Part shown: positions 6,532 through 44,604 of the stretch, piece after piece
How the letters are laid out: every line of letters starts with the position of its first letter
How positions within the stretch are numbered: the first letter of the stretch is position 1
DNA from: Eledone cirrhosa
Lineage: Eukaryota
Length of the DNA stretch: 64,000 bases
NCBI GenBank assembly: GCA_964016885.1
Contig: OZ024750.1
Coordinates: 26,908,001-26,972,000, forward strand
Reading direction: 5' to 3'
Translations under genes and position numbers: made by a program
Notes under the pieces: model-generated
Told to the model about the DNA's origin: nothing
What the model saw: the letters and a program-made list of their open reading frames with translations, nothing else
The model's database searches: none

Positions 6532-7042
6532 TAACGAAGGAGGTGTGGAACGGAACCAGATGGGCCATAATGCACCAGAGTATTCAATACTTAGGGTAGT
6601 AGAGTGGGTAATAGGAACATTTTTAACCCCGATGGCAGAGCTCAAGCCGTTTCGACGGCTATCTCTGGACTCCAGAAGTAGCCGTCGAAACGGCTTGAGC
6701 TCTGCAGTCGGGGTTAAACATTTTCCTACATATACAATTTAATATATATATATATACATATATATATATATACATATATATATATATATATATATATATA
6801 TATATATATATATATATATATATATATATATATATATACATAGGAACAAGTAAGACCCCGACGGCTGAGCTCAAGCCGTTTCGACGGCTAATTCTGTACT
6901 ATAATACAGAATTAGCCGTCGAAACGGCTTGAGCTCAGCCGTCCACGTCTTACTTGTTCCTGTTACCCACTCTACTACCCTAAGTACTGAGTACTTTGGT
7001 GCGTTATGGTCCACCTGGTTCCTTACCACATTTCCTTCGTTA
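6532..7042. mobile_element. Two non-coding fold-back elements (family F) in opposite orientation around (TA)n
   Basis: Hairpins at 6612-6729 and 6841-6961, each with an about 80-nt one-sided tail; contain GAAA-cggcttgagctcagccg-TC (3' half of a hammerhead). Confidence 0.75.
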
Positions 7043-7639
7043 TATATATATACATATATATATATATATATATATATATATATATATATATATATATATA
7101 TATATATATATTTCTTCACGCATGGTTTAAATAATTGAAATAATTAATTGACCCGCGTGCATATTATTTTATTCTTTTATGTTTGCGATGACCTCCCCTT
7201 TCCGCTCGATGACAGTGTGAGATTTCTCATTGTGAAACTGCTGGAATTTCAAAATTGGCGTTAATTCTAGCACGGAGGGGTACCATCGCTGATCATTAAT
7301 ATCGGTAAGGATTTTTTTTTATATCGATATTTGTCGGGGATCCACTGATTATTTATAATTGCCCACCTACATATATTCCTACGGACTATGTGTAGGCTTC
7401 TACATAACCTAGACATTATTTTCCCAAATTGTAGAAAACTTATAATGAAACGATCGTTTGGAAAGAGAGATGTATTTTAATTATGTCTCATATAAAATAA
7501 TACAACTGGCTATCCGCAAAATACGTATAGTTAGCACCCTAAACGCATAATTGGGATTATACTAAGGTATATCCTAATGTTTGTTGAGTGAGACGGAAGC
7601 CGGTCGGAGTATTGCTTAAAGCTTTCTCTGTTAATGTAT

Positions 7640-7990
7640 TAAATATATATATATATATATATATATATATATATATATATATTCATATATACATCTATAT
7701 ACATATATATATACATATATATATATATATACACACACACACACACACATATATATATATATATATATATATATATATATATATATATATATATATATAT
7801 ATATATATATATATATACATATATATATATATATATATATATATATATATATATATATATACATATATATATATATATACATATATATATATACATATAT
7901 ATATATATATATTTATATATACACATATATATATATATACACACACACACACACATATATATATATATATATATATATATATATATATAT
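7640..7990. repeat. (TA)n/(CA)n microsatellite
   Basis: Direct inspection. Confidence 0.95.
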
Positions 7991-8105
7991 TAATAAGAGG
8001 AATTCCAACTTTGTCTGATTTACCCGTTTTATTTACAATCCTTTAAAATTTATAATGGTATTATAATGAAATAGTATGATAGAATATTAAATGTTAAGTG
8101 TTAAT

Positions 8106-8144
8106 TGAACAAGTACTTTCATGCTTTCGCAATCTTCAGTTTCA
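8106..8144 (-). ncRNA. Minimal type I hammerhead ribozyme (family G)
   Basis: tgaaa-CTGAAGA-t tgc gaaa gca t-GAAA-gtac-TT-gttca: GNRA-capped stem II, palindromic stem III, one mismatch at the base of stem I. Confidence 0.72.
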
Positions 8145-8329
8145 TAATGTGTGGTGACAGTCAAGTTTGCAATTTTCAACTGTAATGAGATGGGTAAATT
8201 ATATAAATTATATACAGTGAAAAGTGGCTCCAGAATGCTAAATCTTTCAAACTGTATTTCGACCAATCGGTGTGTAGTTCACTGAATTACTAAAGCTGAT
8301 TGGTTTAGGCGTCACGGTTGGGTGAGCAT

Positions 8330-9090
8330 GTTTAACGACCATGATTTAGGAATAAAGGCGGTTAAATACTGGGTGGAAAAACATAGAGAAGTGATTCCCA
8401 TCAGATTCACAGCGCCATTTATATTAGACGCAGTTAAACTTATTCTGGAACACAACACTTACTTCTTCAATGGAAAGAATTACATCCAAATTAGAAGCAC
8501 AGCCATGGGAACGAAGTTTGTTCCCGTTTACGCGAACTCTGTAATGGGATACTTAGAACAAAAACTCTACCAAGAAATAGAAGAAAAATATAGTACTGAC
8601 TTTAGAGAGTACATTGAAAAATCTTGGAAGAGATACGTTGACGACTGTTTCATCATCTGGACAGAATCTCTAGATACTCCGGATGAGTTCAATATCCTCC
8701 TGAATAACCTACACCCATCTCTCCAATTCACAAAAGAGATGAGTAGGACCAAATTACCATTCCTAGATATAATTGTTTCTACTTTAGGCACAAGGCCACC
8801 AAATACCCAGTGCATTACTGGTACTTTATTTTATCGAGCCCGTAAGGATGAAAGGTAAAGTCAACCTCGGCGGGATTTGAACTCAGATCGTAAAGGGACG
8901 TAACTATGCTGGAAAACATGGCGTCCGACCCTCTACCGATACTGCCAATCCCCCGCCTTTCCTAGATATAATGATAATAAAAAACGACACCTCCATTACC
9001 ACGGATATATATTATAAACACACCGACACCCATCAATATCCGAATTTTAAGTCGTGCCATCCACCTCATACAAAACGCAACATCCCTACA
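8330..9090 (+). mobile_element. Penelope-like RT fragment, interrupted by a SINE and truncated by a Tx1 element
   Basis: STAMGTKFVPVYAN, WKRYVDDCFIIW, LPFLDI|IIK..TDIYYKHTDTHQY. Confidence 0.88.
8774..8958 (-). mobile_element. tRNA-derived SINE (octopus OK-like) with a 14-bp TSD
   Basis: A-box-like tggcagtatcggt and B-box gagttcaaatc on the minus strand; ttcctagatataat repeated at 8760-8773 and 8959-8972. Confidence 0.9.
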
Positions 9091-9094
9091 TACA

Positions 9095-42156: not shown

Positions 42157-42305
42157 ATATATATAAACAACTATCTGGTTGCGGAACCAACCAACCAACC
42201 AGAAATTTATAAGTTTGTAGATTTGTAAATTTGTAAATTTATGAATTTATAAATATATAATAAATTGAAGTGAAAGCAGCTGGTGCGTGTGTTTCTTATT
42301 GGCAA

Positions 42306-42505
42306 NNNNNNNNNNNNNNNNNNNNNNNNNNNNNNNNNNNNNNNNNNNNNNNNNNNNNNNNNNNNNNNNNNNNNNNNNNNNNNNNNNNNNNNNNNNNNNN
42401 NNNNNNNNNNNNNNNNNNNNNNNNNNNNNNNNNNNNNNNNNNNNNNNNNNNNNNNNNNNNNNNNNNNNNNNNNNNNNNNNNNNNNNNNNNNNNNNNNNNN
42501 NNNNN
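42306..42505. other. Assembly gap (200 N)
   Basis: Run of N. Confidence 1.
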
Positions 42506-42509
42506 CATC

Positions 42510-43560
42510 CACACGTACATACTTGCATACATACATAGATAGATACATAAATGCATATATACATACATGCATATATAAATACATACATAGATACATACAT
42601 ACATGCATATATATATATACATGCATATATAAATACATATATAGATACATAGATACATACATACATGCATATATACATACATGCATATATAAATACATAC
42701 ATAGATACATACATACATGCATATATACATACATGCATATATAAATACATACATAGATACATACATACATGCATATATACATACATGCATATATAAATAC
42801 ATACATAGATACATACATACATGCATATATACATACATGCATATATAAATACATACATAGATATATACATACATGCATATATACATACATGCATATATAA
42901 ATACATACATAGATACATACATGGTGGCTGCCAACTCGTTTTCGAGTACGGCCACTACTTTATATCCATGTAGGAGAACCCCTACCAATGCGCTGAACGA
43001 ATGTGACTTTTTAGTCCAGCCAGCGACTTGAAAACTCTGGTACAAACACTACACTTGTGACAAATATTGACACATAGTGCTGGGCCCATGGTACCATGTG
43101 ACGACAAGTGCAGAGAGATTTCCAGATATAAAGCAATGCCTGTGCCGTGAAGCTTTATAGTGAGCAAAGGCACTGCACAAAGCCAGTCCCACTCTCTTAA
43201 CCAAGATGATATTTACCAAAAAGAAGAACAAGTCAACATCATTGGATACCATCAGAGTTGCAGGTGTTACATCAGAGTTTTCCATACATAGATACATACA
43301 TACATGCATATATACATACATGCATATATAAATACATACATAGATACATACATACATGCATATATACATACATGCATATATAAATACATACATAGATACA
43401 TACATACATGCATATATACATACATGCATATATAAATACATACATAGATATATACATACATGCATATATACATACATGCATATATAAATACATACATAGA
43501 TACATACATACATGCATATATACATACATGCATATATAAATACATACATATATACATACA
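42510..43560. repeat. 48-bp minisatellite built from (ATAC) units, interrupted by an RTE fragment
   Basis: Unit atacatacatgcatatatacatacatgcatatataaatacatacatag. Confidence 0.85.
42922..43283 (-). mobile_element. RTE LINE 3' end with C2H2-like motif and (ATGT)n tail
   Basis: HKCSVCTRVFKSLAGLKSHIRSAH followed by a short 3' UTR. Confidence 0.65.
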
Positions 43561-43967
43561 TACATGCATGTATGCATACATACATACATGCATGTATGCA
43601 TACATATATACAGCCAGTCATATACACGTACATACATATATATATACATATACATCTATCCGTCCACATATACACGCGTACATACATACAAAGCTGGCCA
43701 TATAGATGTTTGCGCGTGTGTGTGTATATTGTGTGCATGGTAGTTTGTGTATGTATACACACTCACACGCCTGCACACTCACCACACACACGCCTGCACA
43801 CTCACACACACGCCTGCACACACACAGACTCACACATATTTATATATTTAATTATATGGCTGTCACAATATATATATACACACACACACATATATATATA
43901 TATTTATATATATATATATGTATGTATGTCTATATATGTATATATATATATATTACATATGTATATA

Positions 43968-44157
43968 TAATTGTTTCTACTTTTGGCACAAGGCCAGGAA
44001 ATTACCCGGTACATTACTGGTACTTTATTTTATCGACCCCGTAAGGATGGAAGGCAAAGTCAACCTCGGCGGGATTTGAACTCAGATCGTAAAGGGACGT
44101 AACTATGCTGCAAAGCATGGCGTCCGACCCTCTACCGATACTGCCAATCCACGGCCA
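43968..44157 (-). mobile_element. OK-like SINE, full length
   Basis: Closely matches 8774-8958. Confidence 0.9.
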
Positions 44158-44332
44158 CTATATATATGTATATATAATGATATATAATATATATATATAT
44201 ATATATATATATATATGTCCCAAAAAACTTGTTGAGTGCTTTTATATCAGTTATAAAATATTTACTCGTTGTAACCCAACAATTTTAAATAAAACTTTTG
44301 CATATATATATATATATATATATATATATAAT

Positions 44333-44604
44333 GTAGGAGGTGAGTTTTATTGTAGTACAATAAAGCAATGCATATATCGGATAAGAAGCACTCTACAGTT
44401 TGTAGGACTGGAGTATGCATAATATAAGATCAAAAGATGGTTAAAGGAGTTCCATGTATTTTATTATGCGCATTTTAGCCTCCATATCATGTTCTCCTGT
44501 TTTATCTGATGAAAACACAAATATTATTGCATGATGATGTTTGTTTTTGAAATGCGCATAATAAAATACATGGAACTCCTTTAACCATCTTTTGATCTTA
44601 TATT
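44333..44604. mobile_element. Family C fold-back HHR element with a shorter inverted arm
   Basis: Homologous to 22089-22498 with a different inversion junction; flanked by (TA)n. Confidence 0.9.
44498..44568 (+). ncRNA. Type I hammerhead (family C)
   Basis: tgttttat-CTGATGA-stem II-GAAA-tgcgca-TA-ataaaata. Confidence 0.88.

Follow-up and report, generated by a model that had tools for sequence, protein, structure and literature searches.

Hairpin elements beside TA tracts in the Eledone cirrhosa window

The 64,000-nt stretch of Eledone cirrhosa DNA analysed here (contig OZ024750.1; hereafter the window, to which all counts refer) is AT-rich and very rich in microsatellites, with 78 merged TA tracts, many retroelement remains, and one 200-N gap. 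Beside the TA tracts lie short hairpin elements in which a short arm faces a longer arm bearing an unpaired tail, and these probably represent head-to-head 3′ ends of Penelope-like elements (PLEs) and of their non-coding partners. Inverted repeats were mapped by self-BLAST and self-alignment after simple-repeat masking; in the unmasked window, the best 25 pairs were all microsatellite. Excluded before counting were pairs between copies of a short interspersed element (SINE)-like repeat, micro- and minisatellite self-hits, short palindromes within elements, pairs inside a 430-nt repeat, the inter-copy pair of hairpins F1 and F2, and weak hits below 80% identity (110-182, 12652-12718, 13468-13580, 34667-34736, and 59761-59934). 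Hairpins C2 and H were retained despite overall identities of 73-78% because an unpaired spacer depresses that value, the arms themselves being 97-98% identical. F1 and F2 were also considered as one outer inverted pair (80%), and were read instead as two separate insertions.

In the initial annotation, seven elements (A, F1-F3, C1, C2, and E) were said to pair a short arm with a tailed long arm (tail 40-90 nt), and self-alignment recovered this layout in all seven, with tails of 40-94 nt (Table 1). Three further families, G, H, and I, obey the same rule, and the combination of a short and a long arm characterizes 10 of the 11 strong local hairpins, J being the sole symmetric one. The arms span 13-198 bp and are 89-100% identical (90% in A, 4239-4430 versus 6320-6511), and the unpaired tail of the long arm terminates at a TA run. 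The two termini were originally thought to be fixed and to end in TA. The first part stands for families with several copies: F reuses both its short and its long end in 3/3 copies, C its short end in 3/3 (counting the solo copy at 13922-13971) and its long end in 2/2, and A its long end in 2/2 (second copy at 53801-53942), whereas the ends of E cannot be shown to be fixed because it is single-copy. The second part holds less well. TA at the long ends is assignable neither to element nor to target (in C, these ends have ...CCTACA ahead of the run), and, although the short ends of A, F, C, and I overlap the flank in TA-phase bases and that of H in AT-rich bases, G has no TA overlap with its flank and E ends in TTTCT followed by (CT)n, with no direct TA overlap.

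Inversion centres differ between copies, as had been proposed, but they also cluster: by hand count, the centres of F1 and F2 lie ~17 nt and ~19.5 nt upstream of the GAAA of a hammerhead motif (described below), and that of F3 lies ~45 nt farther out. They are near-symmetric in F1, F2, F3, E, G, I, and C1 and asymmetric in A, C2, and H; in C2, the short arm extends ~75 nt further 5′, with T-run microhomology at the junction.

The perfect identity of the arms in I (198/198) and G (50/50), and the ~98% identity in J, in a microsatellite-rich region with a gap, might result from fold-back artefacts of the assembly or the library, or from palindromes that arose later at fragile (TA)n tracts. Such an origin is very unlikely, however, given that the arms of A, E, and F1 differ by 10-11% with many transitions, that the same family-specific ends recur at loci 8-22 kb apart, and that G bears the tail stem-loop described below.

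The two arms of J (15650-16367) include microsatellites, and both end at the same site beside TA runs. The weak hairpin at 110-182 (76%) stops 4 nt short of a TA run and is possibly an old copy of the general type described here.

Table 1. Coordinates of hairpins, related ends, and tandem elements in the window
Feature	Position	Strand	Tail (nt)	Description
A long arm	4173-4430	-	64	Inverted pseudo-long terminal repeat (pLTR); tail 4173-4236; hammerhead core 4304 to cleavage position 4275; tail stem-loop 4232-4213
A open reading frame (ORF)	4428-6273	+		5′-truncated reverse transcriptase (RT) and GIY-YIG; joined to inverted arm over AAA
A short arm	6320-6513	+		3′ pLTR ending at short site; hammerhead 6446-6475, one core mismatch
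A2	53801-53942	+		Solo long-end copy of A; hammerhead 53819-53848
F1 hairpin	6534-6728	.	78	Tail 6534-6611; centre 6670; arms 90% identical
F2 hairpin	6842-7040	.	79	Centre 6901/6902; tail 6962-7040; stem-loop 6969-6992 (+); hammerhead 3′ half (GAAA-helix III-GTC)
F3 hairpin	14687-14792	.	77	13-bp arms; centre 14779; stem-loop 14758-14735 (-)
C1 hairpin	22086-22498	.	94	153-bp arms, 98.7% identical; 14-nt loop; tail stem-loop 22171-22147 (-)
C1 hammerheads	22401-22455; 22276-22222	+; -		Full minimal type I, one per arm
C2 hairpin	44331-44606	.	88	Hammerhead 44506-44560 (+); stem-loop 44414-44390 (-)
E hairpin	38616-38820	.	40	80-bp arms, 89% identical; partial hammerhead; no tail stem-loop
G hairpin	47564-47758	.	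88	50-bp perfect arms; stem-loop 47686-47710 (+)
H hairpin	54128-54339	.	94	36-bp arms; C-like hammerhead 3′ half; outer tail-motif stem 54255-54274
I hairpin	54415-54882	.	55	198-bp perfect arms; no hammerhead or tail motif on expected strand
C3	13922-13971	-		Solo short end of C; truncated within hammerhead helix III
F4	22588-22660	-		Solo short end related to F but diverged; has kept a natural helix II hairpin, upstream of GAAA
K1	38876-38995	-		Solo long end; stem-loop 38974-38949
K2	53370-53753	-		Solo long end related to K1; stem-loop 53468-53443, compensatory change versus K1
H2	44217-44301	+		Tail-only, related to H; between two TA runs
L	45779-45846	+		68-nt tail-only piece; between two TA runs; weak stem-loop 45785-45803
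D1	21302-21986	+		Non-coding head-to-tail partial tandem; 468-nt monomer; same stem-loop class 21525-21555
D2	37991-38533	+		Partial tandem; 479-nt monomer; canonical type I hammerhead 38377-38445; stem-loop 38059-38089

A Hydra-clade Penelope-like element with the same layout

Judging from its sequence, element A is a decayed, 5′-truncated PLE of the Hydra clade, one of the clades of endonuclease (EN)-bearing PLEs (Craig et al., 2021; PMC8557442), which also includes Hydra-1_Obim from Octopus bimaculoides. Its single ORF combines RT and GIY-YIG, with 38-41% identity by tblastn over ~570 positions to two RT+endonuclease proteins and 40.5% identity over 565 aligned positions to a relative; a Pfam scan of three A fragments returned no match. 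The frame is broken by three in-frame stops and one frameshift near 4580, and ~90 N-terminal residues, including the region that would hold the Hydra RWK motif, were lost with the 5′ truncation. The translation nevertheless shows the DKT motif, the CxCX5C linker, CxxC, and CxH, and the element is <3 kb long and targeted (TA)n. These are the motifs by which PMC8557442 defines the clade, nearly all of whose members lie in (TA)n and carry hammerheads. Thus, A resembles the clade in its short size, C-terminal GIY-YIG, motifs, target, and 3′ hammerhead, the format of which matches File S2 of that paper; it differs from Hydra-1_Obim, compared by eye, as a separate and decayed family.

The pLTR, the 5′ truncation, and the tail at a single end are all PLE traits. 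The short arm of A is the 3′ end of the copy that holds the ORF, and the long arm with its tail is an inverted piece at the truncated 5′ end. An inverted 5′-truncated copy is likewise found at the 5′ end of Penelope-13_HM in Repbase (PMC8557442), although the Hydra-clade account, in the passages and supplement tables consulted, gives no ORF-less hairpin forms, no tails of 55-94 nt, and no tail stem-loop. The solo copy A2 has a micro-inversion where it is truncated: in its 5′ end (53801-53818), 9 nt read as the reverse complement of the corresponding stretch of A.

Hammerhead motifs and the orientation of the arms

A strict type I hammerhead descriptor found three sites, all in C, and none in 30 shuffles; once relaxed, it yielded 15 sites in the window and 0-3 in each of 20 shuffles. 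Of the 15, eleven lie in identifiable elements, namely A (3), C (3), D2, the 430-nt repeat (2), the 3′ end of a PLE at 39820-42156, and an element at 239-620; the other four look like chance. In A, all three arms carry the motif, one with a core mismatch, and cleavage is predicted from the motif. C holds the full motif and G retains none, and F and H hold the 3′ half only, because the inversion removed the remainder. E has a partial motif, with helix I, CTGAAGA, and helix II and no GAAA or helix III in place; a permuted type II hammerhead was considered for it and, on inspection by hand, rejected for lack of pairing between helices I and II. The motif runs from the centre outwards in A, C, F, and H, and the arms therefore stand head-to-head. 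In I, a GAAA-helix III-like motif on the opposite strand overlaps the short end, and the polarity of this hairpin may be tail-to-tail.

This layout bears on whether the elements are MITEs (miniature transposable elements with inverted repeats) or fold-back DNA transposons with long terminal inverted repeats that target TA microsatellites. Their short, non-coding bodies, long inverted arms, and TA on both sides give that impression, and plant Mutator-like elements are reported to target TA microsatellites (PMC4486113). However, in 10 of the 11 hairpins the inverted repeat stops 40-94 nt short of one terminus instead of reaching both; this one-sided tail is seen in C, F, G, and H alike. Arm length is 13 to ~60 bp among F copies and 57-153 bp among C copies, and total lengths are far from uniform (about 106-199 nt in F and 275-413 nt in C). 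There are hammerheads in the arms, there are solo ends, and the same layout surrounds the RT of A. No transposase family was detected in the 111 of 137 window reading frames scanned, a weak point, as a partner could lie elsewhere. A MITE origin is thus highly improbable, and the least probable of the explanations considered: it fails because there are no symmetric termini, the centre varies, the arms carry hammerheads, and a Hydra-clade element shows the same anatomy. The initial annotation, which had preferred PLE retro-products to MITEs and had named symmetric terminal repeats with a matching transposase as the finding that would overturn this, is supported in that preference.

Helentrons and HINEs have short asymmetric subterminal inverted repeats, a 3′ palindrome, and a TT target. 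They were set aside as candidates, the arms here spanning 36-198 bp in most copies and bearing hammerheads.

Solo ends and tandem relatives

Each of the two ends also occurs alone, the short end in C3, F4, D1, and D2 and the long end in A2, H2, K1, K2, L, and the 239-620 element (Table 1). The tail-only pieces H2 and L span about the interval from short site to long end. The 239-620 element (- strand) combines a C-like hammerhead (482-433) with an AT-rich site and with a tail stem in a longer version.

D is a retrozyme-like family, and a second one is formed by the 430-nt tandem repeat at 20011-21221 (2.8 copies, with hammerhead motifs at 20045-20075 and 20905-20935), which has a dispersed copy at 63480-63917. 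Retrozymes have been proposed to be non-autonomous PLE derivatives (PMC7229834; bioRxiv 10.64898/2026.07.22.740005). D and the 430-nt repeat fit the metazoan non-LTR retrozymes, which are non-coding, carry type I hammerheads, and probably depend on PLEs, and both consist of head-to-tail monomers each with such a hammerhead. In contrast, A, C, E, and F are inverted pairs and hence head-to-head hairpins.

A stem-loop in the tail beside the short end

Within the tail, 4-15 nt beyond the short site, begins a stem-loop whose outer stem has four pairs (RYTC/GARY) and surrounds a further hairpin plus a bulge of 1-2 nt. It was first noticed in A, C, F, and H and then located in K1, G, K2, and both D copies, and thus occurs in solo ends and in a tandem retrozyme-like family as well; in D, it directly follows the position at which copies terminate in (TA)n. 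Among the seven hairpin families, it is clear in four (A, C, F, and G), partial in H, where the outer stem is present with just two inner pairs, and absent in E and I. Outer-stem pairs show exchanges of A-T with G-C and of C-G with T-A, and the sequence of the inner stem is not the same from family to family. A scan for the motif gave nine hits against a shuffle mean of 0.91 and a maximum of 5 (200 shuffles); a narrower version had 8 of its 9 hits no more than 80 nt upstream of a TA run, where shuffles averaged 0.13. By eye, the stem-loop can also be seen in three of the six consensi in File S7 of PMC8557442 (at the 3′ ends of Hydra-2_Amil and Hydra-2_Ajap and at the 5′ start of Hydra-1_Ajap); it is partial in Hydra-1_Crog and not clear in Hydra-1_Amil or Hydra-1_Obim.

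We regard this stem-loop as a candidate RT-positioning signal. A wider proposal, held with somewhat less than even confidence, is that Hydra-clade proteins recognize one conserved stem-loop between two RT start sites, that an RNA-protein dimer primes both (TA)n ends, one per site, and that unrelated non-coding hairpin and tandem passengers carry the signal for mobilization, as SINEs borrow the 3′ ends of long interspersed elements (LINEs). If so, a single model would cover the cis signal, how inverted pLTRs arise, and what connects PLEs with retrozymes, and many repeats filed as MITE or unknown in octopus annotations would be PLE ends.

Origin of the hairpins

On balance, the elements are probably head-to-head 3′ ends (pLTRs) of PLEs and non-coding partners, mostly mobilized by (TA)n-targeting Hydra-clade RT/GIY-YIG proteins and made by twin priming followed by annealing of the two cDNAs. 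This reading starts from what was observed, namely the layout itself, the presence of a Hydra ORF in A, hammerhead motifs, two reused termini per family, and the stem-loop in the tail. E and I, which have neither a tail stem-loop nor a complete hammerhead, are classed as working like PLE-derived ends and not as members.

In the proposed sequence of events, a dimeric PLE protein would nick both strands of a (TA)n run, and the two 3′-OH ends would be equivalent primers because (TA)n is its own reverse complement. From one end, cDNA would begin at an internal start immediately 5′ of the stem-loop, with 2-8 nt of UA-rich pairing as an aid, and yield the short arm; from the other, it would begin ~40-95 nt further 3′ and yield the long arm with its tail. 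Both cDNAs would mostly stop early, often in the structured hammerhead region, and their 3′ ends would anneal at a natural palindrome (F1, F2, F3, E, G, I, and C1) or at chance microhomology (A, C2, and H). Repair would then finish the hairpin, and extension of one end only would leave a solo short or solo long copy.

Both arms have the orientation expected of first-strand cDNAs, each with its own flank as primer. In A, 2.1 kb counted from the short site is joined to 0.26 kb counted from the long site, and copying of one arm from the other is impossible, because one has 1.9 kb extra and the other has the tail. The short site appears to act as a primary start, because C3, F4, D1, D2, and the ORF copy in A have it as an ordinary 3′ end.

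Alternatively, a single priming might suffice: cDNA begun at the long site would fold back at a natural hairpin such as helix II, copy itself, and join the far flank at the first TA-rich site or through an endonuclease cut. Loops of 1-14 nt at 7 of the 10 centres fit this scheme, as do the centres of F1, F2, and E, 12-20 nt upstream of GAAA and near the position of the natural helix II loop of F4 (~13 nt), and the closer likeness of F arms within a copy (90-100%) than between F1 and F2 (~80%). Self-priming at junction palindromes has been proposed (PMC3846280), as has EN-mediated resolution for the tail (PMC8557442), and the coupling of short with long ends would need no extra assumptions. Yet a single self-copying cDNA cannot make A, nor C2 barring later deletion; it sits poorly with the short site as a plain 3′ end in the A ORF copy, C3, F4, D1, and D2; and two cDNAs annealing at a palindrome give identical symmetric junctions. 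We therefore consider fold-back, with resolution at the short site, unlikely as the sole route, although at the seven symmetric junctions it may have taken place. The initial annotation had left two priming events and fold-back template switching side by side, and of these the former fits better, since A, and probably C2, could not have come from pure fold-back.

Ten of 11 hairpins combining a short with a long end has a probability of at most 12/2048 if starts were chosen independently, and the choices therefore look coupled. This suggests a coupling of the two start sites that either twin priming or fold-back can yield, and both may operate.

Several results weigh against twin priming by Hydra-clade proteins. 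Seven of the ten junctions are near-symmetric, as single-cDNA fold-back also predicts, the asymmetry of C2 could be a later deletion, and J is symmetric. No full-length parent of C, F, E, G, H, or I was found within the window, and the link of those families to a PLE protein therefore rests on cis features only. The (TA)n flanks hide target-site duplications, and the in vitro data discussed below come from the Poseidon clade and not from Hydra. Three focused Rfam scans gave no hammerhead match, and an Rfam scan of the window listed none among 150 of its 352 matches (miRNA-like or low-complexity); the hammerhead calls hence rest on descriptor scans. Single-strand folds of eight hammerhead regions were clear for D2 only (z -2.94), the other seven ranging from -1.53 to +1.03. 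As for the stem-loop, the motif was defined from these very elements, and the shuffle tests are therefore partly circular; RNAalifold on a MAFFT alignment of 10 motif copies returned no pairs, with the 5′ strands out of register; and the table of its pairs was hand-anchored and chosen for pairing, and hence gives no independent covariation test. Its absence from E and I, together with that of a complete hammerhead, points the same way.

Relation to known systems

The basic architecture is not new. An inverted 5′-truncated copy and a one-sided tail of 30-40 bp are typical of PLEs (PMC8557442, Fig. 2 legend; PMC3846280; PMC8969392), and canonical PLEs, including Pen2a of Adineta vaga (PMC3846280), share the head-to-head truncated copy, single-end tail, and junction palindromes. 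They differ from the present elements in tail length (30-40 bp versus 40-94 nt), and most copies here are reduced to the two ends. In vitro, the PAc element (Poseidon clade) of Anolis carolinensis cuts and extends both strands of AT-rich DNA, a dimer has been modelled, and reverse transcription begins at two sites corresponding to the ends of the tail (PMC11167929). Both there and, as proposed, here, two RT starts bound the tail, with a stem-loop at the start region (a likeness of position), whereas PAc belongs to another clade and has its start sites inside the ORF. Pairs of minimal hammerhead ribozymes in Schistosoma mansoni, on opposite strands, 100-700 bp apart, and ascribed to truncated PLEs, resemble C1; in the available part of the source, they receive one sentence, with no analysis of tails or termini (PMC4209133).

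Because inversion, tail, (TA)n targeting, and two RT starts are already published, the rule of one short and one long arm amounts to known PLE anatomy in new families. The tail stem-loop is one undescribed, testable detail: a full-text literature search that reached few subscription papers and did not include Repbase found descriptions neither of it nor of MITE-like octopus PLE hairpins. Inverted pLTRs, tails, and microsatellite-biased insertion of PLEs are named as an open problem in PMC8557442, and to this the window contributes many short, countable products and two leads, namely the short/long coupling and a stem-loop common to unrelated families. In cephalopod repeat libraries, such hairpins are likely mis-filed as MITEs.

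Other elements in the window

Additional PLEs are present. At 39820-42156, an open PLE frame of 661 codons (RT and GIY-YIG by Pfam) has an Octopus vulgaris protein as its best named match (69%), with a hammerhead at 42117-42151 at its 3′ end and TA repeats directly after; it belongs to a clade other than that of A. Decayed PLE fragments lie at 1300-2740 (-), 8286-9050 (+), and 35000-35750 (-), the last with a weak alignment to Hydra-type proteins. A relationship of F to the fragment at ~1300-2740 was rejected, the two having only 12/13 bases in common.

A non-LTR element at 31425-33905, in which an RT is followed by a (TAA)28 run, resembles Dong/R4. Two related endonuclease+RT LINE copies at 10172-13660 and 23696-25785, 77% identical, are Tx1/L1-like. 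The SINE-like repeat of 150-200 nt is present in ~20 copies, several inside other elements, including 8767-8957, 18589-18763, 37299-37415, 39034-39790, 43974-44156, 47183-47370, 58344-58639, and 61344-61754. One C2H2 zinc-finger match at 42985-43212 (-), just under the Pfam cut-off (E 2.6e-05), is possibly a host exon.

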